A DNA stretch of 64,000 nt from Rhizophagus irregularis (taxonomy: Eukaryota). Positions 31,948-59,800 of this stretch are shown here, piece by piece. The stretch is taken from assembly GCF_026210795.1 (NCBI RefSeq), contig NC_089432.1:1674001-1738000 (forward strand), read 5' to 3'. The notes beneath the pieces were generated by a model that ran no database searches, was not told the DNA's origin, and saw only the letters and a list, made by a program, of their open reading frames with translations. How positions within the stretch are numbered: the stretch's first letter is position 1; every line of letters starts with the position of its first letter. The translations under genes and the position numbers were made by a program.

Positions 31948-33871
31948 CCCTATGAAAAAAAATCATCCAATTTTTGTACAATATTTGTTCAAGTCCGTAT
32001 GGAAATTGTACAATTATTGCAGATTTTTGGATAAAAATAGCTATGAAGTTTTTCATAGCATATTAAAAGTATGCAATTTTTGTACAACTTAAATTTAGGA
32101 TATAGAAAATGTTCAATTTTTGTGTGATCTTTATACAACTTAAATTTAGAATACAGAAAACATTCAATTTTTGTACAATAAAAATTGTGATTATTGTACA
32201 ACCCCTATGAAAAAAAATCATCCAATTTTTGTACAATATTTGTTCAAGTCCGTGTGGAAATTGTACAATTATTGCAGATTTTTGGATAAAAATAGCTGTG
32301 AAGTTTTTCAAAGCATATTAAAAGTATGCAATTTTTGTACAACTTAAATTTAGGATATAGAAAATGTTCAATTTTTGTGTGATTTTTATACAACTTAAAT
32401 TTAGGATACAGAAAACATTCAATTTTTGTACAATAAAAATTGTGATTATTGTACAACTTGAAAATAGACTTAAATTTAGGATACAGAAAGCAATTTTTAG
32501 GTAATCCTACTATACTACTTTCCATCTTACCTGTATGGTTACATTTGACCACTTTTAGGGTCGAATTAAGGTTGCTTGTCTAAACCTCTTCAAAATCCTA
32601 CGATTAGTTTCGTCAAAATTTTACTATAGATTTATTATAGTTTCGGCAGAGTTTCGGCAGTTTCGGCATTTATAATAAGTTTCGGCAGTTTCGTCTTTCT
32701 CCAAAGTTTTGCCAGTTTTTTAATATAACTTTAATATAGTTTCGGCAGAATTTCGCTTTTCGGCGAAACGCCATCTTGCCTAAACCCCTAGGTTTCGGCA
32801 AGCAACCTTAGGTCGAATAGACCACTTTTAACCATTACAAATAGATTTTCCTAAGTAAAGTGATTTATGCAGTAAGGTTACACAAAATTCAACTGCATAT
32901 TTGCTTATAAACGGGCATCTTCCGGACCCATTGGTGAAATTTTTGTATCATCTTGTAACTAAAAAAAAGTCAAAAACTTTTTATTAGGTTACACAATTAG
33001 TTCTGACCGGAATTATAATTTGGCCAGAATTATGCGGTAAAAATCAACTCTTAAAATTATATATGTTGATCACGTGATCTGATCGTCAAAATAAATATGA
33101 TGACGCGAAATGTTTTTGTTTATGTTTTTTTAACCTTTTAACTTTTCTTCAACTTTCTTTTAAAATATTAAGTAAGAAAAACTTGTGTTCTTTATTTTTT
33201 TATTTTCCTAACTTTTTACATTTTAATGTTATTAACTTGCTTTCTTCACTAACTTCATACTTTTTTTTATTACTAATACTAATAATTTACTTTTTAACAC
33301 TACTAATTTGCTTTCTTCACTAACTTCATACTTTTTTATTACTAACACTATTAATTTACTTTTTAACACTACTAATTTGCTTTCTTCACTAACTTCATAC
33401 TTTTTTATTTAATACTAATAATTTACTTATACTAATAATTTACTTTCTTCTTTGATACTACTAATTTACTTTCATGTTACTAACATACTTTATTTTATTT
33501 TATTTTCTTACAAATTTTTATATTTATGATTATATCAAATTCAGTATTTTATTTATGAAATATTGTGTATATTTTTTATATTTTAAGTCAATAAAAAAAA
33601 TTCATAATTTCACTTTATAAATTGCCTGTTATTACTGTAAAATTTAACCTATAATTCCTAAAATATGGCCTAAAATTTGGCTCAAAAATCACACAATAAT
33701 TGTATAAATTCAGGTCAAAAATAGGATAATTATTGAATGAATTACCATGCAATAATTGTGTGATTTATTGCAATTTTTAGCACAATTATTGTATGGTCAA
33801 ATATACAGAAATCGTAGTGAATTTAATTGAATGATTTTTCAACAAAAATCACACAGACTTTTTTCATAGGG
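31948..33871. mobile_element. Non-autonomous TIR element with CCC...GGG termini (CMC/EnSpm-like, superfamily uncertain)
   Basis: CCCTATGAAAAAA ... TTTTTTCATAGGG; the first 255 bp are tandemly duplicated (second copy starts 32203); TTGTACAA/ACAATWATTG subterminal repeats. Confidence 0.75.
32567..32810. mobile_element. hAT-like MITE nested in the CCC element
   Basis: TIR TAAGGTTGCTTG / CAAGCAACCTTA; 8-bp TSD GGTCGAAT; internal GTTTCGGCA repeats. Confidence 0.9.
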
Positions 33872-36226
33872 TATAATGATTTGGAGTTATGTGATGACTT
33901 GGAATTAGAAGACACGTATCTAAAATCGGCCAATGATTTGACATTAGCTTTAAAATTTTGTCAAGGTAACATTTTTAATTTCTTTGTTATTTACTATATA
34001 TTTTGACAACCAATTTCATTATTAGATCGAGATGCTGTTATGTTAGCATATTTATTAGAATATTACTCTGAAAATTCTATGACTCATATTGGCTGGATGA
34101 TTAATGTTACAAAAATACTTCCAGAGTTATCAGAATTATCTAATCATGATTATTATGGTATAATAATGTATTTGTTATTCAATTAATATTATTATATGTA
34201 TATATATTTCATTAAAAAAGATATTATTTTTTATTCATATAGGTAATTATATGGATTTAATACTCTATAAACCTTGTTTTGGAGAAATGAAGTACAATTT
34301 TCCAATTAAAAAATTCCGAGCGTTATCAGTTTGTCAAGATACATTAGAAGTATATGTACCTCTTACTAATCTTTTATCAACAAATTCTTCGGATCTTTTT
34401 TTATATAATAAAATGAGGTATACATCATATAATCTAATTAATTTTAGATCTTTTACTGATGATATTTCTTAATACAGGGAGGATATATTGCCCAATACTT
34501 ATATGGTTCCACTTCCAAATTTTACAACACATGATGCAAAAATTGAAGGAAAATCCAAAAAAGGAATTATACCTTTTTTGAAAAAAACATTTTTTCCACC
34601 TGGCTATAAGAACTTTGGAGACGAAAAATTTAGCCCATTTCTTCAAATTAAAAAAAACGAAGAAGTATTTTTTAGCATTCCAGCAATAGAAGCAGCTATA
34701 AATTCAAGATGGCATCAAGCAATGGCATATTGGATAAGACCATTATGTTTATATGCTATATTTTTAATTCTGTTTGCTATTATTCTTCAGTTTTACAAAG
34801 TACAAGATGTAACTGAATTTACGCAAGTCGGAAGCGGAATATTTTATTATATTGGATTATATCTATTAGTAAATGAATTTATGCAAATAAGGAAGTATAA
34901 GGTCAAATACATTACAATATTTAATTTATTTGATCTAAGCAGTATTATTTTGGGTATGATTGCCGTTTCTTTGGATTTTGTTTTTTTCGTACCCATTATT
35001 TATACAGTAGTTACATTGATACTTTGGATTGAAATGGTATGGTTTATGACTTTTGGATACTAATTTTTAATAATTTTACATTAATTTATCTTTACTTTCT
35101 AAAGCTCTTATGGCTTCGATTATTTTCAGTAATAGCCATAAATATTTTTATTTTTGGAAATCTTTTGAAAAAGATCACACCATTTTTTACATTTATGTTT
35201 ATTTTAATAATTGGATTTGCGAATTCAATGTAATAGTATTCTTGTTTTTATTGTTATATTAAGCATGATATTAAAGAAAATTAACTTTATTTTATATTTA
35301 TATGCAGAATTTTTCTTCTTGTAACCCCATCAAATTTAACTTATACATTAGAAGATAAAAATGCAGAATATAGTTTCACAGGTCCAATTCAAGATAATCC
35401 TGTTGATACAATATGGAATGCTATACTTTCCATGTACTATTTGAGTACAATTAATTTGAATAGTTATAGCGATGATTCGCTATTTAAGCTATTTATTTTT
35501 GTTGCTAATGTTGTTATAGTTCTTGTTCTATTTAATATGATTATTGCATTGATGAAGTAAGTAATATATTTACTAAATAGTATTTGTTTAAATGCTTATC
35601 TGACCTTTAAATTTATGTTTAGTGACACATTTAAAAAAGCCAAAAATGATGGTAATATTGGACTTTTGATGTACAGAAAAGAACTTATTGATGATTTTGA
35701 AAGACTTGATATTCCCTTTAATAAACTTCAACTACATGATTCACCATATATTTGTTATCTTCAGGATCCTAACTTGATGAAAAAATGGATGAAAAAATCT
35801 CAAGAGCTTAGAAAAACAAAATTGTATTCATGGTTTAAAGAGAGTGTTGATAAAGAAAATATAACTTATGATGGAGTTGACATTACACCTTGGTATAAAC
35901 TTATTTTAAGTAATGAGAATCAAGATTCTATATCAACTCCTGATCATATGACACTTTGGTTCTAGTTCTTTTACTTTTATTTTTATACTTAGATTATATT
36001 GTATTTATTTTGATGTACTTTTTATTTTATTATTATTTATTCATTAAAGAATTAATTAACATGATATTATTTGATTAAATTTTAAAATAAATCTTTATTT
36101 TGTTCAATCTCTATATATACGAAAGTATGAAATTAAGTATATTTTAAATATATTTTAAAGTATACTTTTAGTGTATAAAAATATACTTTACTGAAACCCA
36201 TGAAATCGCGACTATGTAGTAGCCAT

Positions 36227-36855
36227 TGTAATGCCGTAGTATATCTAGTAAATTTATTAATTGTGAGGCGCAGTATTACATTTAGTCTTAGTGTATAAAA
36301 TTTTAACTTATTTTTATTTTTATTTTAATTGGACCGAAAAGTCGTTAAACTATTAATCATGAGAATCAAGGATAATTGGTCTGTGATGACCTTAAACTAT
36401 TAGTCACGAGATTTAAGGATAAATGAAGATCCGAAAGATACTAAATTGGATGAAATCAAGTGATCTGAGGTGTCAAGTGATTAATTTGTTGATCACTACG
36501 TTAATATTATAAATCATAATTCAGGAGTTCATGATGATCAAATGGATACAAAATTAAGATAATGGAAATACTTTAAGATAATGGAAATACTTTAAAATAA
36601 TGGAAATACTTTAATAATTTAAATCCATGAATCGAAATTATGAATTTAGTTACACAAAAACAAACATAAAAGGGCGTGAAGATCAACTATTGAAAAAATA
36701 GAGAAATTGGACGAATTTTGTTATGAATTATTTATTTTGTTATTTAATGTTATTAAACCAAGCATATTATTGTATTTATTTATATTATGAATAAAGAGTC
36801 ATTTTGTTAATACCTGAGGTGGCAAACATAATTCTCTATGGGCTCAGGTGTTACA
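36227..36855 (+). repeat. 5' LTR
   Basis: TGTAATGCC...GGTGTTACA; matches the 3' LTR except T36382 versus C46759 by eye. Confidence 0.98.
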
Positions 36856-36857
36856 AG

Positions 36858-36874
36858 TGGTGCATGCTCCGAGA
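36858..36874 (+). promoter_or_regulatory. Primer binding site, probably tRNA-Gly
   Basis: TGGTGCATGCTCCGAGA lies 2 nt after the LTR; it is the complement of a tRNA 3' end ...TCTCGGAGCATGCA-CCA. Confidence 0.85.
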
Positions 36875-37448
36875 AAGGAAAAGTGATCATCCTCACATGA
36901 TCACTACAGGTTATAAGTACAGGATCTCTGAGAAAAGAAAATGATCACCCCCACGTAATCATTAGAAGTTACAAATAAAGGATCGACGAAGTTAAGGAAT
37001 TATAAAATTAAAAGTTCTAAGTCTTGGTTAAAAAAGAATTTAAGGTGTATTAACGTTAAATTTTAATAAAATAAAGTTAAATATTTTTAAGGATACGTGA
37101 AAATAATGGTTACCAAGGTAAAAGGTATTAATTTGGGTGAGTATGACCATAAATGTATAAAGAGATAATGTTAAAAATTAAATTTTTGATCTAACTTGAC
37201 CACCGGCTGATAAGTCAATGAAAAATTATTATTGCAATAATTTTCATACATATGAACCAAATATGTATGGTAGTAATTGATTATCAAGGGAAATGCGAGG
37301 CTAATCAAGTTAGAAGGGGTTTTAATAGAATATTGTAAATAAGTTCCATGAATTAAGGATTAAAAATAATTTTTATAAATAATTGAGGTTAAGTTAAGGA
37401 TAAAAAGTGTACCCAAAAACCGACACTATAAATACGATGGTAGGGTAA

Positions 37449-37657
37449 TTCTGTGTGAACTCAATTGAGGTTTTCTGTGTGATCAATTGAGAATAGTTCT
37501 GTGTGAGCTTTTTCTGTGTGAACTCAATTGAGGTTTTCTGTGTGATCAATTGAGAATAGTTCTGTGTGAGCTTTTTCTGTGTGAACTCAATTGAGGTATT
37601 CTGTGTGATCAATTGAGAATAGTTCTGTGTGAACTTTCAAAAACAATTCTGTGTGAG
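37449..37657 (+). repeat. 63-bp x3 tandem repeat with ~10 TTCTGTGTGA motifs in the element's 5' leader
   Basis: Directly visible periodicity. Confidence 0.9.
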
Positions 37658-37771
37658 GGTACCCAAGAAGAATCATGATTAACGTTAACGAAAATAAAAA
37701 TAATATTTGCTGGACAAATATATTCAAGGAAAGTTATAAAAAGGTGAGGAATTCGATCTCTCACCCATAAA

Positions 37772-38455
37772 ATGGAATACAAAATCAATTTAACAAAAGA
37801 GGATTCAGAAAAATATTTGTGTAAAGGAAAAGGAATTAAATTAAAAATTTATAATGAAGACAATAAGGCCATCAGTCTAAAGACCATCTATGATGTTAGA
37901 CCACCCAAGAAAAAGAAAAAGAGATGTTTGACCTGTGATAATAGAGAACATGTGAAAAGGACCAAAAGTGAGAATAAAGTGGAAAGATTTATAAATGAAT
38001 TGTTGACACCGGTAAATGTGGAAGACCTATTGATACCAGAAATACAAAATGTAGAAATTCATGATGTTGAAAAATTAGTAGAAAGATACATCAGTCTTGG
38101 AAATACAAATGGTAAAAACATCTTAATATGGTACAATATTGGACAAATTTTTGAACGAGAAATTAAAGCAAGAATAAATCAAACAAAGCCAGACCAGACA
38201 GCTAGAGAAGAATTATATGATGAAATGATGGAATTTATAGTTAATGAAAGTACTGATGAAAAACAAAAGAAGAAGGAAGCATTAAGGAAAAGGATGCAAG
38301 GAGCTATAAAAATATATAAACTTTTTACTGAAATTGGTCAAGATAAGATATATAGAGTAAAGGAAACATTTGTAACGACTATTATAAAATTGACAAATCC
38401 GGAAATACAACAAATAATCGGACAAATCAAATATGGATTCACACTTCAACCTTAG
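37772..38455 (+). CDS. Retrotransposon accessory ORF1 (227 aa), function unknown
   Basis: Intact ORF with AAAATGG start, basic PPKKKKKR (NLS-like) segment, CxxC and a helical C-terminus RKRMQGAIKIYKLFTEIGQDKIYRVK. Confidence 0.8.
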   Translation: MEYKINLTKEDSEKYLCKGKGIKLKIYNEDNKAISLKTIYDVRPPKKKKKRCLTCDNREHVKRTKSENKVERFINELLTPVNVEDLLIPEIQNVEIHDVEKLVERYISLGNTNGKNILIWYNIGQIFEREIKARINQTKPDQTAREELYDEMMEFIVNESTDEKQKKKEALRKRMQGAIKIYKLFTEIGQDKIYRVKETFVTTIIKLTNPEIQQIIGQIKYGFTLQP

Positions 38456-38619
38456 GTTGGAAAATTTTATGGAATATAAATTTATTTGTACAAACCTGTA
38501 AACTACCATACTCAGTAATGAACAAATGAGGTAAAGGCAAGCCCAGTATAGGTCAAATAAAATATAAAAGAAGGATAAAAAGTAAAAGACGTGAAAATTT
38601 TTAGAGAATTTTATTAAAA

Positions 38620-41600
38620 ATGGAATGGTACCATGTTTGGAACGCTGGATATATAAACCATAAACAGGAACATGACCTAGGAGTGATAGAACCAGAGGAA
38701 TGTTTAGCATGTGAAATATGTAACCCAATAGAAAGAGAAGTATCAGCGGCATTCAAGAAATTTTGGGATGTTTTATTTAAATTCGAGGATACAATACTAA
38801 TGTACAATAATGTAACACATAAAGAATTATTGAATTTATTAAGTATGGACAATAGAGAAAGGGAGGATACAATACATAAAGGAAAATGTAGGAATATAGT
38901 AGATAGAATAATTGAATCAATAAGGTACAGACAACAACCAAAAATGAAAGAAAAAGGTTTAAGGATAATAATTGTAGTAATTGTAAGGGATTGTATTGAA
39001 GGAAATTTGGAAAATGAAGTATTTGACCGGTTAATTGGATGTCCAGAAATAATGGAACATGGATATATTTTGGAAGATTGGGATATTGAAAACAGATTTC
39101 AAAAATTTTGGGAATGGTACGGTTCAATATTAGAATTTGGGGTGGAAGTAATCCATGCGACACCAGAAACAATAGTAATATTCAGGGAATTATTATACAT
39201 GGAAGAAATCATAACTGAAAATATAGGAAAAGTAATTGATTTAACGAATACAATTGTTTACAGGAACCCATTAAGAGAGGGAGAATCAAAACAACAAGAA
39301 TGGGAAAGATTGATACAGAAAGTGTTACAAAGATTTATTGACACCAAACAATTTACAAGGGAACCTGAGGACCCAGAAAGTGATAGTCCTGAAAGTTATG
39401 AATTAGAGGACAGTGATGGTAGTATACATTATGAAATAAAAATAGAGGATGATGTCAAATGGACAGTGGAATCATTAAAAAGAAAAATTGAAGAAATGGG
39501 TGGAAGGTTCACCGACAAAGATATACAAAGAATGTGGGACCTAAGGATAAGGATAGAATTGATATTAACAGAGGACTTTTTAGGTACATTTTTCGAATTA
39601 ATGGGACTAAGTGATGAAAAATTAAAAGATGAAATAAATGAATGGTTAACAAAAGAAACATTAATATGTGGAAATTGTAGGAATAGAAAGTTACCTGATA
39701 TGATAGCAGACATTGGACAATGTAAAAATTGTGAACAAGAAGTATTATTAGAATTAAAGGACGACTTAGAAAAACTAGGGTACGAATTAAATGTGTCAGA
39801 AATAGGGAGAATAAGAGAATTCAGGATAAGCAATAGTATAATATTAACAACGGAATTTATGGAAAAATATCTCCAGGAAATTGATACGAATGACAAAGAA
39901 TTAAGGATAAAATTATATGAATGGATAAATGAAAATACCACATTTTGTGATGAATGTGGAATAAGATGGATGAACAATAAATTTGACGAAGGAAAAACCA
40001 AGTGTAGGGATTGTGAAAATGACGAAAATGAAATTGATATCAGGGTTAAAAGATTAAAACAAATATGTGATGATAATAAAATAGGAATAACTAATGGAGA
40101 GTTATTGAGGTTAATCAGTATGGGATATACTGATGGAGAAATACTGGATCAAGAATTTATTGAAATATTCCAAGGAAATAAAAATGAAATGGAGAAAAAT
40201 TTAAGGCGAATATTAGATAAATTTCTAAAACAGCAAGCTGGAATTGAGGATAGTGAAAGTAGTGGAAATGAATCTGATAATGAAAAATCTGATGGATCTG
40301 AAAAAGAATCAGATGGATCTGGAAAAGACGGAGAAATTTTAAATCCAAATGATACCGATAACAATGAAAATTTTGAAGAACCTTATGAAGAAAACATTAT
40401 AAATAGACCTGGTTTTGACTCAAGTGAAAGTTCAGAATCAAACCCTGAGGATAAAAGTGAAATATCTGATTATAATATAGAAAATTTATTTGAAACACCT
40501 TTAACACCACCGATACCACCAATTCTACCAATAGTACCAATAATTATAGGAGCAACAAGAGCTGAAGTAAGGGAAGATTTTAGAGCGGCTTTACTAGCAG
40601 CAACAGGACATGATATAGGAGGTAATTGGGCTGGATTAGTCGCAGCCAATCCATTAGCAAATGCAATTGAGGATGCAGGAAATGTAGCTGGAGGAATAAT
40701 TAGTATGCCACAATTTTATGGAAGGGAAGAAGAAGACATAAACGATTGGGTAAGACAATTTGAAACAGCATTTACTGCTATAGGAAAAGCAGCAGGAGTA
40801 AATGGAGCTAGACAAGCAGCAATGGCAGCTACCTGTTTGAAAGGTGCAGCAGCACAATGGTATAATGAAAAGAAGGAAGCAAACAATGGTCATTTGGTAA
40901 ATTGGCAAGATAACGATAATGATAATGATTTAAAACATAGGATTAAACAACGATTTACCAGGGAAGATGTTAGAAAAAGGAAAATGTTAGAATTAAGGAA
41001 AATAACACAAGGAGTAAATGAAAATGTTGAGGCATATACGATAAGGTTTAGACAAATATTAAGGATAGCTACCAGAGGCCATGCATTAGATGATGAATTA
41101 CAAGTGGATAATTATATCGAAGGATTAACACCAACATTGGGATATCAAGTCAGAAGACAAAACCCAGCAAATTTAAATGATGCAGTAAATACAGCAAGGA
41201 GAGAAGAGGAAGCTACTAATGAATTAATGAGAAAAACACTTAATATACCAATTAATACCCAAAGAAAAGGAATCGATATACAAGACGACAAGCCAAAGAA
41301 TATATTTGAAAAACCATTGGAGAAAAATTATGAGGATGACCTTGCCGACATGTTTAAAAAATTAGAGGTAAAACTAGTAAATCAACTTGGAGGGCAAAAG
41401 AGACCACCAAACAATAACAATAGACAAGGACCACCACCTCGAGCATGTTATAATTGTAAACAACCAGGACATTATGCAAATGAATGTAGGGTAAATAATG
41501 GTCAAAGAAACTATGGAAGACCAAATAATCAAAATTATAATAGAAGATCAAATAACTATAATGGAAGACCAAATAACTATAACAGACCACCAAACCACCA

Positions 41601-42204
41601 AAACAATAATCGAGGATTCAATGTAGTGGAATATGATAATTATAATGACCAATATGACCAATATGATTATGATAGTCAGGATTATCAGGATAATTATGAC
41701 CAAGGATATAGTTATGATGACCCGTATTACCAAGATAATGATGTAACATTTAACCATGTTGATCAAGATTTTTATATTGGTGAAAGACAAACGAGAAGTA
41801 ACATAAAGAATAGGTCAAGTAATCGAGATATAGATATGGAAATTGACCAAGAACAAACACGAAGAAGGAATAATAAATATGCAAGCCAAGAGGAAAGGGC
41901 AGCAGCATTACCAAAAAGAGGATTCACTGATGAAAGTCTGAGGAAAGCACAAGAAGCAAGGAGAAATAATAATACATGTAGAAATTGTGGACAAAGAGGT
42001 CACTATGCAAAACAATGTAAAAATGAACGTGTTGAAGGTATCCATAGGACAAGCGCATTTCAGAGGAACATACCAGAATATAACATAATAGAGGATCTGA
42101 AAAATACCAGAGCAAATGCAACCTTTTCACAAATTATAAACATGAGTCCAGAGCAAAGGAAAATATATTATGAAGGAATGAGAAGGTATCCACAAACAGA
42201 TTGA
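38620..42204 (+). CDS. gag: Gag polyprotein with a long N-terminal extension (1194 aa)
   Basis: Ty3-type capsid from ~40705 (PQFYGREEEDINDWV...LKGAAAQWY...QGVNENVEAYTIRF...YIEGL); two CCHC knuckles CYNCKQPGHYANEC and CRNCGQRGHYAKQC. Confidence 0.93.
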   Translation: MEWYHVWNAGYINHKQEHDLGVIEPEECLACEICNPIEREVSAAFKKFWDVLFKFEDTILMYNNVTHKELLNLLSMDNREREDTIHKGKCRNIVDRIIESIRYRQQPKMKEKGLRIIIVVIVRDCIEGNLENEVFDRLIGCPEIMEHGYILEDWDIENRFQKFWEWYGSILEFGVEVIHATPETIVIFRELLYMEEIITENIGKVIDLTNTIVYRNPLREGESKQQEWERLIQKVLQRFIDTKQFTREPEDPESDSPESYELEDSDGSIHYEIKIEDDVKWTVESLKRKIEEMGGRFTDKDIQRMWDLRIRIELILTEDFLGTFFELMGLSDEKLKDEINEWLTKETLICGNCRNRKLPDMIADIGQCKNCEQEVLLELKDDLEKLGYELNVSEIGRIREFRISNSIILTTEFMEKYLQEIDTNDKELRIKLYEWINENTTFCDECGIRWMNNKFDEGKTKCRDCENDENEIDIRVKRLKQICDDNKIGITNGELLRLISMGYTDGEILDQEFIEIFQGNKNEMEKNLRRILDKFLKQQAGIEDSESSGNESDNEKSDGSEKESDGSGKDGEILNPNDTDNNENFEEPYEENIINRPGFDSSESSESNPEDKSEISDYNIENLFETPLTPPIPPILPIVPIIIGATRAEVREDFRAALLAATGHDIGGNWAGLVAANPLANAIEDAGNVAGGIISMPQFYGREEEDINDWVRQFETAFTAIGKAAGVNGARQAAMAATCLKGAAAQWYNEKKEANNGHLVNWQDNDNDNDLKHRIKQRFTREDVRKRKMLELRKITQGVNENVEAYTIRFRQILRIATRGHALDDELQVDNYIEGLTPTLGYQVRRQNPANLNDAVNTARREEEATNELMRKTLNIPINTQRKGIDIQDDKPKNIFEKPLEKNYEDDLADMFKKLEVKLVNQLGGQKRPPNNNNRQGPPPRACYNCKQPGHYANECRVNNGQRNYGRPNNQNYNRRSNNYNGRPNNYNRPPNHQNNNRGFNVVEYDNYNDQYDQYDYDSQDYQDNYDQGYSYDDPYYQDNDVTFNHVDQDFYIGERQTRSNIKNRSSNRDIDMEIDQEQTRRRNNKYASQEERAAALPKRGFTDESLRKAQEARRNNNTCRNCGQRGHYAKQCKNERVEGIHRTSAFQRNIPEYNIIEDLKNTRANATFSQIINMSPEQRKIYYEGMRRYPQTD

Positions 42205-42744
42205 CTACAAGAATCAATGAACAACATTGAAGCAGAACATTTAACTGCATTAAGGGGTAAATTAATAATAAACCAAGAATTAAAGGACGTAATGTTTGAT
42301 ACAGGAGCAGCAGTAAATGTAATAACTAGTCAGATAATGGATGAAATGGACCTAAAAATTGAGGAACCGAGTACAGTAAGATGTGTGATGATAAATGAGG
42401 ATAAATTAGCATCTAGGGGTACCACGACAATATACATACAATTTGGGGATAAAGAAATACCCATTAAGGTTGAAGTAATTGATTCAGGAAAAAACGAAAT
42501 TGTGTTAGGAAATGGAGTATTAGATATGTTCAAAGCAAATATAGATTACACAGATAAAACAATAATAATTAGAATGAATGATGAAACTATGGATATACCA
42601 GTAAAATACACACAAAGGACCATTAAAGGGTTTGAAGAAACATTTGATGAAGAGGAAATATTAGAAGAATTATACCAGGATGAATTGTATAACATATATG
42701 AAGATGACCATGAAGGTCAGGAAGATGAAAATTTTAAAATATAA
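42205..42744 (+). CDS. Aspartic protease, in frame with gag behind a single TGA
   Basis: FDTGAAVNVI catalytic motif and IVLGNGVL; same frame as gag. Confidence 0.9.
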   Translation, partial: LQESMNNIEAEHLTALRGKLIINQELKDVMFDTGAAVNVITSQIMDEMDLKIEEPSTVRCVMINEDKLASRGTTTIYIQFGDKEIPIKVEVIDSGKNEIVLGNGVLDMFKANIDYTDKTIIIRMNDETMDIPVKYTQRTIKGFEETFDEEEILEELYQDELYNIYEDDHEGQEDENFKI

Positions 42745-44219
42745 GTCTTGGTCAGAATGATACTGAAGAGACGATAAAGAAGCACAAAAGTGACCATGAA
42801 AAATTTACTGAAAAATTTAAAGTAGGGGACATAACCAATGAACAAAAAGGTAAATTAAAAGTATTAGTAGAAAAATATAAGGATATATTTGAGTACGATG
42901 GTGAAAAATATAATAGGACAAACCTAGTAAAACATGAAATCAGATTAAAAGGGGGTACTGAACCATTAGCCCAAAAGAGGTACAAAGAAAATGATGAAAA
43001 AGGTAAATTCATCAGAAAAGAGGTTGACGAGATGTTAAAATTGGGAAAAATTAGAGAATCTAGAAGTCCATGGTCTTCACCAGTGACTTTAGCAGGGAAA
43101 AAGTCGGGAAATTATAGATTTTGCATCGACTATAGAAAATTAAATAAAGTTACAATAACAGATGCATATCCATTACCGAGGATTGACGAACAATTAGAAA
43201 GGATAAGTTCAGGAAAATGGTTTACCAGTCTAGATTTAGCATCAGGGTTTAATCAGATAGAAATGGCTGAGGAAGATATTGAGAAAACAGCATTCATATG
43301 CTCAGCAGGATTATATGAATATAATGTCATGCCATTTGGGTTAACAAATGCGCCTGCAAGTTTTCAAAGGTTAATGGATAAAGTATTAAAGGAGTACCTA
43401 AATGAATTTGTGATAGTATACATTGATGATATAATGATATATTCGGAAAATTTTGAAGACCACCTAAAACACATAAAGTTAGTGTTAGAAAAATTAAAGG
43501 AAGCCAGTTTAATACTAAAGTTAAAGAAATGTATATTTGGGAAAACAGAAATAGAATTTTTAGGACATGTAGTTGGTAAAAATGGATTAAAACCAAGTCC
43601 AGGAAAGGTCGAAAAGATACAAAAATTAACAGCACCTATAAATATAAAAGGTGTAAGGTCAATATTAGGGTTATGTACGTATTATAGAAAATTTATTAAA
43701 GATTTTTCAAAAATAGTAAAACCAATAACATCTTTATTGAGAAAAGATGAAAAGTTCGAATGGGGCATCAAACAACATGAAGCATTAGAGATATTAAAAA
43801 GGAAATTAACCGAAGAACCGGTGTTAAGACAACCAGATTGGTTAAGGAAATTTATATTAATTACAGATGCTTCAGGAGTAGGATTAGGGGCAGTGTTAGC
43901 TCAAAAAGATGATAAAGGTCAAGAATATGTAATAGAATATGCCAGTAAAAGTTTAAACAGGACAGAACAAAGATGGCCAATAACCGAACAAGAATGTTAT
44001 GCAATTGTATGGGGAATACAACATTTCCATAAATACTTGATCAATAGAAAATTTGAGGTAGTAACAGACCATGCAGCTTTGAAGGGATTAATGACTGCAA
44101 AAGTACCAAAAGGAAAGAGATCAAGATGGGTCATGGAATTGGAACAGTATGATTTTGAAATAACCCATAGACCAGGAAAAGAAAATAAAAACGCAGATGC
44201 CTTATCAAGAATAATATAA
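42738..44219 (+). CDS. pol: Reverse transcriptase-RNase H (frame open from 42738, -1 relative to protease)
   Basis: VKHEIRL..PLAQKRY, SPWSSPV, RFCIDYRKLN, LDLASGFNQI, MPFGLTNAPASFQ, YIDD, TDASGVGLGAVL, EQECYAIVW, TDH, NADALSR. Confidence 0.97.
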   Translation, partial: NISLGQNDTEETIKKHKSDHEKFTEKFKVGDITNEQKGKLKVLVEKYKDIFEYDGEKYNRTNLVKHEIRLKGGTEPLAQKRYKENDEKGKFIRKEVDEMLKLGKIRESRSPWSSPVTLAGKKSGNYRFCIDYRKLNKVTITDAYPLPRIDEQLERISSGKWFTSLDLASGFNQIEMAEEDIEKTAFICSAGLYEYNVMPFGLTNAPASFQRLMDKVLKEYLNEFVIVYIDDIMIYSENFEDHLKHIKLVLEKLKEASLILKLKKCIFGKTEIEFLGHVVGKNGLKPSPGKVEKIQKLTAPINIKGVRSILGLCTYYRKFIKDFSKIVKPITSLLRKDEKFEWGIKQHEALEILKRKLTEEPVLRQPDWLRKFILITDASGVGLGAVLAQKDDKGQEYVIEYASKSLNRTEQRWPITEQECYAIVWGIQHFHKYLINRKFEVVTDHAALKGLMTAKVPKGKRSRWVMELEQYDFEITHRPGKENKNADALSRII

Positions 44220-44255
44220 ATAGATGGGTAAAAGAGTTACTTTTCAAAAATAAAA

Positions 44256-44495
44256 ATGGAACAAGTGGTAAGAAATACAAATCATAAAATAAAGGATATA
44301 ATCGAAAATTTAGAAGGTATAACAAAGGAATTAAACAGGATAAAGTATAACTATAAATTCAAAGCCAAAAATTTTGAAGATAGTGAAGAAAGACCATTAA
44401 TATTGGAAACTCAAGAGGAAATATTACAAATAGGGGTGATATTAAGTAAAGTAAACAAGCTAAAATTATCAGAATTATGTAAAAATGGGACCTAA
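44256..44495 (+). CDS. Small accessory ORF (79 aa, predicted coiled coil) between RNase H and integrase
   Basis: AAAATGG start; heptad-like IKDIIENLEGITKELNRIK; overlaps the next ATG by 11 nt. Confidence 0.55.
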   Translation: MEQVVRNTNHKIKDIIENLEGITKELNRIKYNYKFKAKNFEDSEERPLILETQEEILQIGVILSKVNKLKLSELCKNGT

Positions 44496-46266
44496 AATAA
44501 TAATCATATGTGGAGTTGATGGTACTGGAAAAACATTCATTGTAAATAAACTTATAAAAGAATTTGAAAAAGTAGGACAAAGTGTGAGGTTTAACACCTT
44601 TAAAAGGAGAAGAGAGGACAATGATAAGTATAAAATACCAAAGAAAGGTATAGAATGGGAATTCAGGAAGGAAGTTGTCGAACAAATCAACAGGAGAATG
44701 GAAGAACATGATAATGAAGATTGGTTAATATTAGATAAAAGTCCCTATAGTGAGTACTTTTATCAACAAACACCATCATTCGACAGAGGATACATAACAA
44801 GATATGAGAACCACCTATTAGAAAAGGAAGTATTTAGGAACAAAAGGATAATTGATGAATCAATAGTGATATTTTTAGAAAATGAAAAATGTTGGGAAAA
44901 TTACAAAGGTAGAGAACATTCGAAAAAGGATCAAGGACATAAAACATCATATCCATTATTAGATGAAGAAAGATATATGGAGATGGTGAAATCATTTAAA
45001 GAATGTCAAGATATTTACGAAGGAGAAAAATATGCTAATATTAAAATATCGAATAATGACACAGATTGGGAAAGAGTATATAATAAAGTAATAGAATTAG
45101 ATGGAGATAAACCACCAATAGAGGTTAAAAATGTTGAGATTAAGGATAACATCAGAGTAACTGATGGTAAAAAGCATATTGAGAAAAATGGTAAAAATAT
45201 AAGAATAATAGAAGACTTTGAAAAGATGGGAGCACTATATTTAGCTCACAGTCATGAATTATCAGCACATATGGGAATCAAAAGTACTTATGATAATTTA
45301 AAAGATAAATATTATTGGGAAAATATGCTGAATGATGTTGAAAGATATGTAAGGACATGTGATGAATGTCAAAGAAGAGGAAAACCACAAGGGAAAAATG
45401 AATTACACCCAATTAAAGTAGTAGAACCATGGTATCAAATCGGGATCGACTTTGTTGGACCATTGAACACAACAACAAATGGTAATAAGTACATCATAGT
45501 AGCAATGGATTATTTTACAAAATGGCCAGAAGCCAAAGCAGTAAAGGAAGCAACTGCCAAAGAAGTATCAAAATTTATTTATGAAGACATCATTTGTAGA
45601 CATGGATGTCCAATGAAAATATTGAGTGATAGAGGAAGTCATTTCAATAATGAAATGATTAAAGAATTAATGGAAAAATTCAAAATTAAATGGAATTTTT
45701 CTACAAGTTATCATCCAGAGACAAACGGACTTGTTGAAAGATTCAACCGAACATTAGGTCAAGCATTAGCAAAATTATCAACCAAAGATGATTGGGATCA
45801 AAGGATAGCACCCATATTATTTGCTTACCGAAATAAAAAGCATAGTTCAACAAGAATTCGACCATTTTATTTAACATACGGAAGAAATGTACGGACAATA
45901 ATGGATGAAAATATCAAAGAAATTAACCTAAGTGATAGAATAGTTGGATTATTAGAAGAACTACCAAAAATCTGACATGAAGCCAAAGAACAAATACTGA
46001 AATCTCAAACAAAACAAAAAGAGTATCATGACAGAAAAATAATCAAAGAACACACCTTTGGAATTGGAGATAAAATACTACTCTATGATAAAGCCAAAGC
46101 ACAACAACTATCGGGAAAATTAGAATCAAAATGGTTGGGACCATTTTACATTCATGAAATACTACCGAATGGAGCTTATAGAATTAAAAATATTAAAGGT
46201 GTCATCAAGAAGATACCTGTAAATGGAGAATTATTAAAGACTTACCATACACCGATGAGTAAATGA
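44485..46266 (+). CDS. dNMP/thymidylate-kinase-like P-loop domain fused to integrase (internal TGA at 45973-45975)
   Basis: N-terminal IIICGVDGTGKT and LILDKSPYSEYFY; HHCC (AHSHELSAH..CDEC); DDE core (GIDFVGP, SDRGSHF, VERFNRT); after the TGA the same frame continues with a GPY/F domain (GKLESKWLGPFYI) to TGA 46264-46266. Confidence 0.92.
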
Positions 46267-46498
46267 TAACTATCATCAATGGACTTAGAAAAATAAAGAT
46301 AATTTATAATCATGTGAAATAAAATCACATGACATAAAAATAATTTTCGAAAATAGGAAAAACTAATGAAAATTTCCTAAGAAAGACCAAAGTGAAATCC
46401 GGTACAAGAAAACCGTAGACTTAACAAACACATGATAAACCGCAGATGTAGACGCAGCAAAAAGGAATATTTAAAACGCAGCTGAGTCAAGTGACAAT

Positions 46499-46589
46499 GC
46501 ATGTTTGATTTAGTGGTATAATTCGCACCTACCACTTCGAGACACGAGTTCGATTCTTAGAATAAATTTAATGTGGGCATTAAATTTTT
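46499..46589 (+). ncRNA. Degenerate tRNA-Gly-like sequence with Pol III A/B boxes, hairpin and T5 inside the retrotransposon
   Basis: GCATGTT-TGATTTAGTGGTATAATT-CGCAC-CTACCAC-...-GAGTTCGATTCT; then hairpin AAATTTAATG/CATTAAATTT and TTTTT. Confidence 0.65.
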
Positions 46590-46591
46590 AT

Positions 46592-46602
46592 GCGGGGGAT
46601 AG
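46592..46602 (+). promoter_or_regulatory. Polypurine tract
   Basis: GCGGGGGATAG immediately before the 3' LTR. Confidence 0.8.
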
Positions 46603-46603
46603 T

Positions 46604-47232
46604 TGTAATGCCGTAGTATATCTAGTAAATTTATTAATTGTGAGGCGCAGTATTACATTTAGTCTTAGTGTATAAAATTTTAACTTATTTTTATTTTTAT
46701 TTTAATTGGACCGAAAAGTCGTTAAACTATTAATCATGAGAATCAAGGATAATTGGTCCGTGATGACCTTAAACTATTAGTCACGAGATTTAAGGATAAA
46801 TGAAGATCCGAAAGATACTAAATTGGATGAAATCAAGTGATCTGAGGTGTCAAGTGATTAATTTGTTGATCACTACGTTAATATTATAAATCATAATTCA
46901 GGAGTTCATGATGATCAAATGGATACAAAATTAAGATAATGGAAATACTTTAAGATAATGGAAATACTTTAAAATAATGGAAATACTTTAATAATTTAAA
47001 TCCATGAATCGAAATTATGAATTTAGTTACACAAAAACAAACATAAAAGGGCGTGAAGATCAACTATTGAAAAAATAGAGAAATTGGACGAATTTTGTTA
47101 TGAATTATTTATTTTGTTATTTAATGTTATTAAACCAAGCATATTATTGTATTTATTTATATTATGAATAAAGAGTCATTTTGTTAATACCTGAGGTGGC
47201 AAACATAATTCTCTATGGGCTCAGGTGTTACA
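46604..47232 (+). repeat. 3' LTR
   Basis: 629-bp direct repeat of 36227-36855. Confidence 0.98.
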
Positions 47233-48479
47233 CCATGCTGCCGCCACTTAACGTAGTAGGCGTACGGCTACTCTATATTAATTCTAACGCAGTTGTATGT
47301 ATTTAATATAGAAAATATATAGTAGATTATCATCATAATATAGAAATTGTATCGCCAATACAAAGAAACTATATAAATGTTAGCTAGAAACTGTATAAAT
47401 GATTTAAAGTAATGATATATGTGATTTGCATTAAACATGTAGTAAATTCATAGAAAATTTGTATTAACTTTATAATAAATATGCAGTAAATACATAATAA
47501 GTATATAGTGAATTCATAGTAAATACATAATAAATATATAACAAATTGCAGTAAATATATAGTAAATTCACAGTAAATACATTAAATATATAATAACAAA
47601 TTCATAGATATGAGTCTGATCACATTCCAAAAATCGTTAAGTATGGCGCAGCAAAATTGCGCCAAGTTCTCATGAACGAGACCCGGGAAATAAATTTGGA
47701 TGGGACGCATGATTAGGTGGCGTAGTCAGCCAAGCTGATTGGGCAGAAACTTTACTGCGGTATTTTTGGGACCCGAATGCGGAACCTCGTGGCGATGGTG
47801 TCCTAGCCAGCTAACGGAGATGTAAAATGTACTGATTGTAGGAAGTGTCTGGGGTATTTTACTACAGTCTCTTCTAATAATACGTAAGAAATAATTTCTG
47901 GTCGGACTTATCCTACGTAATTCGTCCCTTCGGCGTTTTTTTTGAAATTTCACGGATGCTCCTAATACAAATATTTCCAATAATTACAGGACACTATTTA
48001 CCAATATATATGGAAACCAGAACGTGAATGGTTCAAAACCTTTCAACTCCTCAAAAAAAGACAAATCCATTATCAACGTCGCTCAAAGAAAATTCGTCAT
48101 ACGGTAAACACAATCCTGCAACCACATCCACTTCATTACACCATACTCTCCGAGGTAATTCTCCGATCTCACTCAATCCTATGTCATGTGTCCCTATCTA
48201 CGTACCCTCGAAGAAAAAAGAAAAACACTTCATCTTTCCTATGAAGCTCGTAAATAACACCTCTCTACCGACGACGCGTTCATTAAATGGACGTTATCAA
48301 ATTATTCGCAGGCACTTGGATGTCTCATAGAAATATAGATAGATTTTTTTTTCTTTCGTATATAGAAAGTGGATTAGGTAATGAGGAATAAAGTGTATAG
48401 AATTATTAAAAAAATCGCGTTCTAAAGTTCACAGAAAGAGAAGTGAAAAGTTAATAACAATCACTGAAAGTAAATAAAT

Positions 48480-50570
48480 CTAAATAATCTAAATTAAAAA
48501 AACGAACTTATCATAGTTCGTTCTTTTAAATCCTGGTCGTTTAGCTTCGTCTCACGTCCAGGTTTCCTAAAAATAAAAGAAAGGGAATGTTAATAACGTT
48601 CCCTTAAGTAAAAAATAAAAATAGAAATAAAGAAACGAACTTACCATAGTTCGTTCTTTTTTTTTAAATCCTGGTCGTTAACGTCTTAACGATTTCGTTC
48701 GTCTAAGTTTCCTAAAAATAAAAGAAAGGGAACGTTAATAACGTTCCCTTAAGTAAAAAAAATAAAAATAAAAATAAAAAACGAACTTACCATAGTTCAT
48801 TCTTTTTTTTAAATCCTGGTCGTTAACGTCTTAACGATTTTGTTCGTCCAGGTTTCCTAAAAATAAAAGAAAGGGAACGTTAATAACATTCCCTTAAGTA
48901 AAAAAATAAAAATAAAAATAAAGAAACGAACTTACCATAGTTCGTTCTTTTTTTTTAAATTCTGGTCGTTAACGTCTTAACTTCGTTCGTCCAGGTTTCC
49001 TAAAAATAAAAGAAAGGGAACGTTAATAATGTTCCCTTAAGTAAAAAACCTAAGTAATTAATAGCGCAAGTAAAAATTAAAAAAAAAACCTAAAAAAAAG
49101 AAAAATGAACCCTTACCGCCTAGTTCGTTCTTTTTTTAAATCCTACGTTAACGTTCGATTAACGTTCGTTCATCCAGGTTTCCTAAAAATAAAAAGAAAG
49201 GGAACGTTAATAACGTTCCCTTAAGTAAAAAATAAAAATAAAAATAAAAAAGCGAACTTACCATAGTTCGCTTTTTTTTAAATTGTTCGTTTTTTTTTAA
49301 CGTCTTAACGTCGTTAATCAGGTTTCCTAAAAATAAAAGAAAGGGAACGTTAATAACGTTCCCTTAAGTAAAAAAATAAAAATAAAAATAAAAACGCTTA
49401 CCTAGTTCGTTCTTTTTTTAAATCCTGGTCGTTAAAAGTCTTAATGATTTTGTTCGTGGTTTCCTAAAAATTAAAAAGAACGTAACGTTCCCTTAAGTAA
49501 AAAAATAAAAATAAAAATAAAGAAACGAACTTACCATAGTTCGTTCTTTTTTTTTAAATTCTGGTCGTTAACGTCTTAACTTCGTTCATCCAGGTTTCCT
49601 AAAAATAAAAGAAAGGGAACGTTAATAACGTTCCCTTAAGTAAAAATAAAAAAAAAACCTAAAAAAAAGAAACGAACTTACCATAGTTCGTTCTTTTTTT
49701 TTAAATCCTGGTCGTTAACGTCTTAACGATTTCGTTCGTCCAGGTTTCCTAAAAATAAAAGAAAGGAACGTTAATAATGTTCCCTTAAGTAAAAAAATAA
49801 AAATAAAAATAAAGAAACGAACTTACCATAGTTCGTTCTTTTTTTTAAATCCTGGTTGTTAACGTCTTAATGATTTTGTTCGTCCAGGTTTCCTAAAAAT
49901 AAAGAAAGGGAACGTTAATAACGTTCCCTTAAGTAAAAAATAAAAATAAAAATAAAAAATGAACTTACCATAGTTCGTTCTTTTTTTTTAAATCCTGGTC
50001 GTTAACGTCTTAATGATTTTGTTCGTCCAGGTTTCCTAAAAATAAAAGAAAGGGAACGTTAATAACGTTCCCTTAAGTAAAAAAATAAAAATAAAAATAA
50101 AGAAACGAACTTACCATAGTTCGTTCTTTTTTTTTAAATCCTGGTTGTTGACGTCTTAACGACTTCGTTCGTCCAGGTTTCCTAAAAAAAGAAAGGGAAC
50201 GTTAATTACGTTCCCTTAAGTAAAAATAAAAAAAAAACAAACAAAAGAAACGAACTTACCATAGTTCGTTCTTTTTTTTTAAATCCTGGTCGTCAACGAC
50301 TTCGTCCACGTCCAGGTTTCCTAAAAAAAAGAAAGAGAACGTTAAATTACGTTCCCTTAAATAAAAAAATTAAAAAAAACCTTAAAAAAAAGGTTCTTTT
50401 TTTTTAAATCCTGGTCGTTAGGCTTCGTTCGTCCAGGCTTCCTAATAAAAAAGAAGGAACTATTAATTACGTTCCCTCAAGTAAAAATAACAAAAAAAAA
50501 GAAACGAACTTACCTAGTTCGTTCTTTTAAATCTTGGTCATCCTGCGTCCGTTCGTCCAGGAAAGGGTTT
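48480..50570 (-). repeat. ~146-bp tandem array (~15 units) with an exon/intron-like unit on the minus strand
   Basis: Unit contains GAACTTACCATAG...CCAGGTTTCCTAAAAATAAAA...GGGAACGTTAATAACGTTCCC; the minus strand reads TTTTTAG|GAAACC...CTATG|GTAAGT. Confidence 0.9.
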
Positions 50571-56869: not shown

Positions 56870-59800
56870 ATGGATGAAATCGAAACCGAAATAGACGAAC
56901 ACATAAAAAAAAATGAGTACGTTGAAGATCTAGAAAGTGGTAATTATACTTACGGAGAAAAAATCAATTATGTTGCCATTAGCCCAAATGGTTCGATAGT
57001 AGCAAAGTTTAATCCATGTAAGTTATATTTGATATATACTTTATTCAATTTTTCATTTTAAAAATAATAGGGTAAATTCTTCCTAAACTTATTTCTTCAG
57101 ATGACTCTTCTATATTAGTCACAAAAGTGACGACGAATGCAAATAAAAATATACCCTTCGATAAGAAAAAATTCTTTAATAAAAAACCATCTAATGTTTT
57201 TGGTTGGTCTTTAGCAATTTCGGACATAATTGATGAAGGAAATGATATTGGGTTGGTTGCAATTTCTTGTGCAACCGACATAGACACAAGTCCAAAAGAA
57301 ATTGAAAAAGAAAATTTGCAAAAAGCATCAATTAGAAAACAATTATTAATATTATTGCCAGATTTCCAATTCATCTTAATTTTCTTATTTATTTGTTATT
57401 ATTCGGTCATTATTGGTTACACACATAATTTAAATCTTTACTTTTATCTATTTTTTATTATCATTTTCATGAATATTCTTTATTTTTACGAATCTTATAA
57501 CACTCCTAAAATCCTAAAGACTGATATAAAGCAATCTCTTATTTCTAGTGAAGGAATGATAAAAATTTTTAAATTTTCATTTAACGATAACAACAATGAT
57601 AAAGAAGACGATAATTATTCAATATATCATCTTGGTGGAGCTGTTACCTTTTTAAATAATTCTAATAAGAATAGTACAACACTTATCTGCATGAATTGTG
57701 TGGAAATACAAAAAATTAATATTATATTGGACAAGAATATTATTATATCAAAAGAAGGTATCTATTTATTACCTGAAAATTTATTTAAAAAATTAGGAAG
57801 TTTTAAAGATTCAAAATGCAAATGGAAATATCTTTTAAAATCTAAATTTCAGAAATTTTTAATGATTGATACGAGTAAAAATGATCACGTACAAAGCATT
57901 GAATTATATGATGTTAATAATTTACAATTAATAAATGTGTTTTATAGACATCTTGAAGATTGCTTAATTTCAAATGATAAAAACCTGGAATATTTGCGAT
58001 ATCAACTGATTCAAGATTATTTGCTTATTCTTATGGAGATAATATTATTACAATTTATTTAATGGAAAGTGGACTTGAGGTCGTTTCAAAGAAATTTGAT
58101 AATATCTTTAAAATTAAATTTTTAGAATTTATTGAAAAAGATAAAAAATTATTCATTATTGAAGAAGATAGAGAAAGTAATGTGAAATTTCATATTTGGA
58201 TTATATCAGGATGTTTAAATGATTATTTTTCCATTTCTAAAGATGATATTGGTTTATCGGATAGTAATATCTCTATTCTGTCAAAATATGATGAGCATCA
58301 TAATGCTTTTACAAAAGCAAATGGAAAAGTAGTTTTTAAAATTGATGGGGAACAGTTTAGAACCGTACACGAAATAACTATACAAAGAACGATTTTTGGA
58401 GAAAATGATGCTGTAACTGATGAGTATGAATATCAATCATGTAATCTAGAACCATGGAATAATTATGATAATACAAAGACTATTAGTGGTAGATTTCTTA
58501 ATAACGACAAAAGATTGCTTCTTATAATTGGTCAAAATAGCATTCAACTATGGAAATCTAAATCCATAAATTTTGTAGATTTTAACAATTTTAAAAAATT
58601 TTGAAAATTCGAATCTTGTTTATATTTTAATAAGTGATAGCATCGAACCAGAAAAAAAAGCCAAATTTCAAATTAATGATGACATGACTACCATTATATC
58701 TCATGCATGTAGATCACTTGCTTATCTATATAAACATACAAAAAGTATTTATTCTAGAGAAAAATATCAAAAATTCATTAACGGGATCATGTATATTATT
58801 AAAGACTTTATAAAAAATTATCCTGATAATTGGAAACTTATGGAGGTTCAACACCCTTTAATGGCATATCTAATTTATTCACGCTCATTTTCTCTAATCA
58901 AATATATTCTGTTTGAAACTAATACCCATGCTAAAATGTTACACAAACCACAAAGTAAATATACATATAACAATTATTTGGAATCAGCCAGTGATTTGAA
59001 ATTGAAATTATTTGAAGATTTAGAATTGAATGATGAAAGTTTGAAACCAGCTAATGATTTGGAATTGGCTTCAAAATTCTGTCAAGGCTAACACTTTAAG
59101 TTCATCCTTGTTATTATTAAGTAATAAGTAATATATTTTTAACATCAACTTTATTAATAGATCGAGATGCTGTTATGTTAGCATATTTATTGGAATATTA
59201 TTCTGAAAATTCTATGACTCATATTTGTTGGATGATCAATGTTACAAAATACTTCCAGAATTATCAAAATTTTCTTATAATGACTATTATGGTATATTGC
59301 AGTATTAAATTTTAGTGTTAACTTATATAAGCTTTGTTATTAAAAGTATTTATTATTAATTAATATAGGTAGTTATATGGATCAATTATTTTACAAGCCT
59401 TGTTTTGGAGAAATGAGATATAATTTTTTAATTAGAAGATTTAAAGAATTATCAGTTTGTCAAGGTATATTAAAAGTATACGTGCCACTTACTAGTATTG
59501 TACCAAAAAATTCTTTGAGTTATAAGAAAGTAAGGTATGTATCATTTAATTTAACTCACTCTTTATAAATCTTTAATTTATTGTTTTTATCTTTAATGTA
59601 GGGAGGATATTTTGCCTGATATCTATATGGTTCCACTCCCAAATTTTACAACACATAATTTTAGGGTTGTAGAAAAGGATGGAAAAGGAATATTTAAAGG
59701 AATTAAAAATTTCATATATTTGTTGGGATATATATTCCTTCCACCAGGTTATAAGAAATTAGAAGACAAATATTTTAGTTCATTTCATCAAATTAAAAAA

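Follow-up and report, generated by a model that had tools for sequence, protein, structure and literature searches.

Long terminal repeat (LTR) retrotransposons and retroviruses can bear a dUTPase, an accessory enzyme of nucleotide metabolism placed inside the pol region, which has been described from fungal and rotifer LTR elements (PMC6431247; papers are cited here and below for the passages available to us). In the Glomeromycota, NUDIX subfamily K comprises NUDIX domains in proteins with a Ty3 capsid, protease, reverse transcriptase (RT) and RNase H (Glomerales, including R. clarus), while subfamilies C and F join NUDIX to a deoxynucleoside kinase (dNK) domain in the Diversisporales (PMC12210691). 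The consulted passages and tables of that paper report no retroelement kinase, and in those of two papers on R. irregularis transposons kinases come up solely as host genes that have expanded (PMC11075540, PMC8647823). A literature search of titles and abstract openings, outside Repbase, GyDB and most subscription papers, found no description of a retrotransposon-borne thymidylate (dTMP) or deoxynucleoside kinase. Here we describe a candidate in a 64,000-nucleotide stretch of Rhizophagus irregularis DNA (contig NC_089432.1, positions 1,674,001 to 1,738,000), referred to as the window. A complete, young Ty3/Gypsy LTR retrotransposon at 36227-47232 carries, between RNase H and integrase, a P-loop domain with the predicted fold of dTMP kinases and dNKs. 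This cargo of a Glomeraceae Ty3 clade is real and conserved, and it appears to be undescribed. Coordinates are positions within the window, and kinase residues are counted from the ATG at 44485. The retroelement enzymes known so far, dUTPase and the NUDIX of Rhizophagus, clean the nucleotide pool, whereas a kinase would build it; elsewhere, such kinase cargo is a typical trait of phages and of DNA viruses with large genomes. The position differs as well: dUTPase, which destroys a wrong precursor, lies between protease and RT in the elements that bear it, whereas the phosphotransferase fold described here lies between RNase H and integrase.

The kinase-like domain opens a reading frame that is separate from RT-RNase H, as the original prediction had proposed: RT-RNase H stops at 44219, and the ATG at 44485 begins a frame of its own. 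The motifs on which that prediction relied were located at residues 10-17 (GVDGTGKT), 84-94 (DKSPYSEYFYQ) and 128-132 (VIFLE), and the P-loop domain continues, stop-free and in frame, into an integrase with an H2C2 finger and a D-D35-E triad. The claim that 44485-46266 is one open frame had to be given up for this copy. A TGA at 45973-45975 truncates the window protein at 496 aa, at the cost of the last 96 residues and the GPF motif. Arg occupies the position of the TGA in 9/9 full-length (593-aa) sibling proteins compared, from a cluster of 47 members of which 15 are listed, and base C stands at 45973 in the contigs of 4/4 runs. The full-length siblings differ from the window protein at 4-18 positions only, and one sibling protein carries G15E; annotated R. 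irregularis proteins are 98-99% identical over the kinase. The window copy, itself slightly damaged, belongs to a family that has amplified recently. Since the stop is private to this copy and the siblings are intact, the kinase-integrase fusion is a trait of that family. Four raw-read runs showed almost no depth over the kinase and no joints, the main peak falling on another gene, and are uninformative on expression.

An AlphaFold model of residues 1-209, computed from a 25-sequence alignment, had a pLDDT (predicted local distance difference test) of 83.7, and its top Foldseek matches were deoxynucleoside kinases (E 6e-5). A wide fold search left dTMP-kinase-fold proteins, dGK, dAK, NadR and AbmG tied at Z 13.3-13.9, with 2plr (ST1543) in the first of the tied rows. 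In a second fold comparison S. aureus dTMP kinase was best, at Z 16.1 (root-mean-square deviation 3.4, 188 aligned residues), and dCK reached Z 14.8. Profile-profile alignment against seven dTMP-kinase-like proteins gave 98.9%, and 94% after removal of the P-loop. Among Pfam families, Thymidylate_kin was the one matched by most members (18/25 at E≤0.001; the relative P0011 clears its cut-off at 30.2 bits), while KTI12 was matched by 12/25, the dNK family PF01712 weakly by 3/25 at E≤0.001, and PPK2 (PF03976) by 2/25 at the same threshold; PPK2 structures reached Z 12.3, below the dTMP kinases. An FtsY/SRP identity was rejected, as it came from a sequence-only PDB match through the P-loop alone and the fold search gave it no support; without the P-loop, the sequence-only PDB search returned no matches. 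AlphaFold, Foldseek and profile comparison thus agree on the proposed nucleoside-monophosphate (NMP) kinase fold of the dTMP kinase/dNK type, and the best structural match is indeed a dTMP kinase. On the predicted model, the superfamily assignment is secure; that of the subfamily is not.

Relatives of the domain, about 52-65% identical to it, come from R. irregularis, R. clarus and Glomus cerebriforme, and from 25 metagenome loci. A first search gave 33 relatives among 625 candidates; in these 33 proteins Pfam recognized RNase H in 25, an integrase zinc finger in 5 (one protein has both) and neither in 4. When 1.84 billion representatives were searched with a profile, 45 matches reached E≤1e-10, and ordinary dTMP kinases and dNKs surfaced only from about 1e-5, so the host enzyme has not been captured recently. 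No relatives were found among viral contigs or prokaryote genomes, and tblastn against phages gave weak matches only (best E 0.2, 0.3 and 0.008).

What is constant is the place of the domain between RNase H and integrase, not its fusion partner. RNase H upstream and/or integrase downstream was seen at 23/25 metagenome loci, the remaining two being short, so sibling elements do keep the domain at this junction. Among the 11 loci that show RNase H, the kinase is fused in frame behind RT-RNase H in 5 and separate in 6; where integrase is visible it has its own frame (16/16), with an ATG that overlaps the kinase stop or lies within 4 bases of it in 10 of the 16. This overlap suggests translational coupling, and a purine tract followed by TG was present in 3/4 loci checked. 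At L006, L007, L009, L014, L019 and L025 the kinase stop and integrase start are separated by 140-570 extra bases, which appear to hold further small open reading frames (ORFs). Three kinds of attachment therefore occur: fusion behind RT-RNase H, a free ORF, and fusion ahead of integrase. The last, for which the original prediction had been made, holds for the window family, where it is contiguous in nine siblings, and fails as a general trait. On genomic DNA it was seen only in this family, to which a protein fragment, P0117, can be added; this fragment is colinear across the kinase-integrase junction at 76% identity, so that the true fusion predates the present burst. Database joins of kinase and integrase in other families (P0011, P0169, P0022 and P0031) lose the last kinase helix, while the cluster mates P0168 and P0170 finish at the kinase's own stop, and we read these joins as predicted splices in gene models. 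Packaging through integrase was likewise proposed too broadly, as the kinase of other families is either joined to RT-RNase H or encoded as a free ORF.

The domain is not decaying neutrally, as shown by purifying selection and by invariant residues of catalytic type. Among 320 locus pairs sharing at least 60 kinase codons, 192 fell within 0.1<dS<2, and the ratio of nonsynonymous to synonymous substitution rates (dN/dS) was below 0.5 in all 192 (median 0.19, maximum 0.47). Ten disjoint pairs gave kinase values of 0.04-0.17, with integrase at 0.03-0.08 in four of those pairs, so that purifying selection on the kinase is about as strong as on integrase. Pairs in which the kinase is a free ORF are under similar selection (L014/L017, 0.08; L015/L018, 0.10). 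Mean identity was 0.63 for the kinase vs 0.66 for integrase (104 pairs), and 0.60 vs 0.69 for RNase H (36 pairs). Kinase distances followed those of integrase (rho 0.48, 0/2000 permutations, 15 elements) and more weakly those of RNase H (rho 0.38, 41/2000 permutations). RT values, out of frame in the 320-pair comparison and affected by frameshifted loci in the ten-pair one, were left out of account. Third-position GC content, A content and CpG depletion of the kinase equal the values for gag, RT and integrase. The capture of the kinase is old and has been inherited vertically with the element, and the integrase fusion is a later rearrangement in the branch of the window.

Judged by the residues that define these families, the domain belongs neither to the standard dTMP kinases nor to the standard dNKs. 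G10 and D12 were found in 21/21 and K16 in 22/23 sequences covering those positions, K40 and R43 in 24/24, and R143 in 23/23. Lys at position 85, which the original prediction had singled out as a DK in place of DR, is a fixed family trait, present in 25/25 sequences (loci plus window) and in 164/164 motif-bearing proteins matched, many of them near-identical. With D84, the residues G10, D12, K16, K85 and R143 form a near-invariant set. In common with dTMP kinases (PF02223) the domain has its predicted fold, a GxDxxGKT P-loop within the pattern GxD/ExxGK[ST], a D-x-x-x-x-S-x-x-x-Y-Q spacing in DKSPYSEYFYQ equal to that of DRY...YQ, and a lid Arg; it differs in having DK for DR and an invariant KRRR (NTFKRRR) for the EP motif, and is only 12-17% identical. 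The EP/FP motif after strand 2, which we take to be a dTMP-kinase hallmark, was seen in P0133, P0113, P0125, P0130 and P0131. The dNKs (dCK/dGK/Dm-dNK, PF01712) share the predicted fold and provided the best Foldseek matches; DKS resembles their ERS, and an acidic residue at +6 and a Cys before the lid are likewise held in common. In contrast to them, the domain has no catalytic Glu after strand 2, reads DKS instead of ERS, and retains one of three lid arginines (N139 and R143 in place of RxxxRxR). We presume the Glu, ERS and RxxxRxR features to define dNKs, and all were seen in P0121. Compared with the catalytic subunit of PPK3, the predicted fold is present and the DRX arginine absent.

The second tier of matches (E 1e-20 to 1e-37) includes proteins in which a Pfam-grade NUDIX precedes the same DK kinase. 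Such fusions with the DK motif (P0077, P0078, P0150, P0193 and P0200) lie on short metagenome contigs; P0200 is 41% identical to the window domain, and the clusters have up to 71 members. None of the NUDIX-kinase proteins, among 269 proteins, was fused to RT or integrase. As nearest outside relatives, these fusions link the domain with nucleotide metabolism. By eye, the sequence ahead of the retroelement kinases suggests a NUDIX remnant, but the resemblance is not significant (58-607/1000 shuffles as high; hhalign 2.5%). A kinase tree of 47 rows is open at its base, and shows neither a donor nor an ancestral status of the NUDIX-fused forms. The dNK domains of subfamilies C and F are annotated as PF01712, which the window family matches weakly, a comparison by annotation only (PMC12210691). 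PHROG 761 matches the domain over its full length (E 1e-13), with viral neighbours in the Atlas. A phage origin by this route was rejected: ordinary dTMP kinases and a dNK are matched by the same PHROG at 1e-27, so it names no donor.

We tentatively propose, at slightly under an even chance, that the domain is an ATP-dependent nucleotide kinase supplementing the precursors on which reverse transcription draws. It probably works like a dTMP kinase or dNK, and the established mechanism of these enzymes makes a nucleotide acceptor likelier than a nucleoside, because the catalytic Glu of dNKs is missing and the P-loop Asp is present. A Ty3/Gypsy clade of the Glomeraceae would on this proposal keep, at the RNase H-integrase junction, an accessory domain of predicted thymidylate-kinase fold that raises precursor supply while cDNA is made, probably by phosphorylating deoxynucleoside monophosphates (dNMPs). 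Lys would do the job of the DRX arginine in an active enzyme; the acceptor would be a phosphorylated nucleotide, consistent with a P-loop Asp as in dTMP kinases, no dNK Glu and a basic acceptor side. Fusion to RT or integrase would carry the kinase into the particle, and would be irrelevant to an enzyme that is co-expressed with Pol. Several observations weigh against this proposal. The DRX Arg, described as essential in dTMP kinases and PPK2, is replaced by a fixed Lys, and loss of this Arg explains the inactive subunit of PPK3 (PMC12995831; PMC8679000, in the part available, names the motifs only). KRRR stands where the EP motif is expected, the first lid Arg has become Asn (N139), and the window domain scores 21.8 bits, below the 27-bit Thymidylate_kin cut-off. 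Tethering is not required, the kinase being unfused to RT in 6/11 loci and to integrase in 16/16. Finally, deletion of negative regulators of ribonucleotide reductase in yeast did not raise Ty1 cDNA (PMC3002893), so that precursor supply need not limit reverse transcription.

Some of the same features would suit an ATP-dependent module that acts on nucleic acid, where it would bind or phosphorylate the primer tRNA, the ends of the cDNA or the genomic RNA within the particle; we consider this unlikely. Basic residues are fixed on the acceptor side (K40-R43, R61, K62, R70 and R71), the domain is as conserved across families as integrase, and the superfamily includes the tRNA-acting kinases PSTK (Z 11.6) and Kti12 (Z 10.7), the latter echoed by the KTI12 matches noted above. 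Mononucleotide kinases score 2-5 Z higher, however, the DKSPYSEYFYQ spacing fits DRY..YQ, NUDIX, the fusion partner of the nearest relatives outside the clade, is a fold of small-nucleotide hydrolases, and conserved basic residues are weak evidence in proteins that are Lys/Arg-rich throughout (11/18 conserved charged positions are basic). The absence of the EP motif, of the DRX Arg and of one lid arginine could instead mark a catalytically dead or weak nucleotide-binding scaffold, a pseudokinase that dimerizes or regulates RT or integrase, for which rPPK3, an inactive, regulatory subunit of dTMP-kinase fold, offers a model (PMC12995831). We hold this to be rather improbable: Arg has changed to Lys and not to a neutral residue, even the distant forms fused to NUDIX have this Lys without exception, the P-loop Lys and Asp and R143 are retained, and a diffusible enzyme accounts better for free ORFs that are under the same selection.

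PPK3 also makes a further reading a real rival, as it does the dead scaffold. Derived from dTMP kinase, it has lost dTMP-binding residues, acquired a cleft of basic character and uses polyphosphate to make ATP, and ST1543 (2plr) is a catalytic PPK3 homologue named in the same source (PMC12995831). An independent, PPK3-like exaptation would yield a kinase that makes NTP or dNTP from NDP at the expense of the fungal polyphosphate store. With PPK3 the window domain shares the predicted dTMP-kinase fold, an altered acceptor site and conserved basic residues, KRRR for EP paralleling the altered pocket and basic cleft; 2plr tops the wide fold search, and PPK2 structures match. Yet 2plr lies within 1 Z of ordinary dTMP kinases and dNKs, in the second fold comparison it falls to Z 14.7 (5h70) vs 16.1, and PPK2 is matched by so few members. 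Moreover, the DRX Arg is retained in catalytic PPK3, which depends on a second subunit and adjoins ppx (PMC12995831); no specific sequence link to it was shown. We judge this reading improbable. Were it true, Glomeraceae Ty3 elements would burn the phosphate store of the fungus for their reverse-transcription nucleotides; mycorrhizal fungi hold a large store of polyphosphate. The NUDIX-kinase relatives, together with NUDIX in other Rhizophagus Ty3 polyproteins and a phage kinase of the dTMP-kinase fold encoded two genes from a dCMP hydroxymethylase, would fit a nucleotide-editing pair that clears damaged or inhibitory nucleotides, or activates a modified dNMP and so places an unusual base in cDNA. 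No retroelement kinase here bears an intact NUDIX, the remnant test was not significant, and no base-modifying gene was found in the element, which leaves editing highly improbable. That the domain is a neutral passenger or an annotation artefact could be argued from the stop in the window copy, the sibling G15E and the spliced appearance of P0011, P0169, P0022 and P0031. The frame is contiguous in window DNA and nine full-length siblings, however, the domain is present across families only about 55% alike, and dN/dS, well under 1 in every pair, has already refuted such a reading, to which we give almost no credence.

Whatever its substrate, the domain adds a new variant to the dTMP-kinase superfamily through its fixed DK/KRRR active site. 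The domain marks a recently active element clade in a model mycorrhizal fungus, and databases mislabel it or leave it unnamed. Being small, soluble and easily assayed, it offers a means of asking whether nucleotide supply limits retrotransposition in Glomeraceae, and nature has in effect experimented with how an accessory enzyme is attached to Pol by shuffling the domain among RT, integrase and a free ORF.

The element as a whole has the features of Ty3/Gypsy: paired LTRs, a target-site duplication, a primer-binding site, a polypurine tract, the domain order protease-RT-RNase H-integrase, a Ty3-type RT, and an integrase with an HHCC finger and the triad D322, D382 and E418 (Table 1). Its frames follow the order ORF0, Gag, protease, RT-RNase H, ORF X and kinase-integrase. 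The LTRs are 629 bp each, have TG...CA ends and differ by one mismatch (blastn 629/630, including one flanking base). With yeast Ty3 it shares LTRs, primer-binding site, polypurine tract, target-site duplication and the Gag-protease-RT-RNase H-integrase order, and the closest solved structures are Ty3 RT for RT (1e-97) and Ty3-G for integrase (1e-24). Unlike Ty3, its Pol is split into protease, RT-RNase H, ORF X and kinase-integrase frames, and it has a long Gag extension, ORF0 and the extra kinase-fold domain. The primer tRNA is presumably of Gly type, judging by its acceptor stem.

Table 1. Features of the retrotransposon, in window coordinates.
Feature	Position	Strand	Evidence or remark
Target-site duplication CCAT, 5' copy	36223..36226	+	3' copy 47233-47236; sequence
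5' LTR, TG...CA, 629 bp	36227..36855	+	blastn, one mismatch vs 3' LTR
Primer-binding site	36858..36873	+	complementary to tRNA 3' end finishing in CCA
Accessory ORF0, 227 aa, no family assigned	37772..38455	+	Pfam/PHROG
Gag: ~630-aa N-terminal extension, capsid, two CCHC knuckles	38620..42204	+	Retrotrans_gag 2e-11, zf-CCHC 2e-9 (Pfam)
Aspartic protease ORF (DTG)	42205..42744	+	Pfam gag-asp_proteas 2e-7
RT-RNase H ORF (YIDD), own frame	42738..44219	+	Pfam RVT_1 1e-41, RT_RNaseH 2e-36
ORF X, 79 aa (80 codons), no Pfam/PHROG family	44256..44495	+	stop overlaps kinase ATG
P-loop domain of predicted dTMP-kinase/dNK fold, aa 1-209	44485..45111	+	predicted model, fold and profile searches
P-loop GVDGTGKT (G10, D12, K16)	44512..44535	+	conservation counts
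Basic KRRR patch in place of dTMP-kinase/dNK EP motif	44602..44613	+	alignments
DKSPYSEYFYQ, DRX equivalent, Lys for Arg	44734..44766	+	aligned to DRY..YQ
Lid-region CWENYKGRE, one lid arginine (R143) retained	44890..44916	+	alignment
Integrase in frame with kinase: H2C2 finger, D322-D382-E418, GPF tail	45112..46266	+	Pfam H2C2 1e-17, rve 7e-11
Premature TGA specific to window copy	45973..45975	+	sibling and contig comparison
Degenerate tRNA-like stretch ahead of polypurine tract	46499..46560	+	shuffle test
Polypurine tract	46594..46603	+	sequence
3' LTR	46604..47232	+	blastn

Several minor features of the coding region were recorded. The Gag extension (38620-40500) contains several CxxC pairs, has no Pfam or PHROG family and is 64% identical to the start of P0062, a protein of another kinase-bearing family. 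Gag terminates in TGA-CTA-CA (42202-42210), in frame with the protease ORF, and the same arrangement occurs in the distant element L011 at ~370-380; we take this context to be a stop-readthrough signal. In the window family the first in-frame Met of the RT frame is at residue 99. A conserved motif, AAGTCTTGG, spans the protease/RT junction (window 42743-42751; L011, 893; L020, 61), with a second copy in the 5' leader at 37019-37027, and these are the only two copies in the 64 kb. A -1 frameshift at AAAUUUU at this junction was rejected, since the -1 frame runs into a stop immediately. ORF X is mostly skipped in low-depth contigs of run X5, with joints at 44235-44477 and 44250-44480 that are not GT-AG and are perhaps deletion variants among copies.

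The tRNA-like stretch ahead of the polypurine tract was not called by ARAGORN or Rfam and was not seen in L008, L011, L018 or L019; its pattern was reached in 2/20000 shuffles. The T-arm of this stretch agrees with the tRNA to which the element's primer-binding site points, and the 3' part that the primer-binding site copies is absent from it. Outside the element, a host gene with membrane-type segments is present in the window as three paralogues (~19700-23000, ~31200-35900 and ~57700-61300), two ORF pieces of which gave no Pfam match at 1e-4. The element starts ~260 bases past the last ORF of the middle copy, and 1.2 kb downstream of it lie about 13 tandem copies of a ~145-bp unit with the palindrome AACGTTAATAACGTT (48470-50500).

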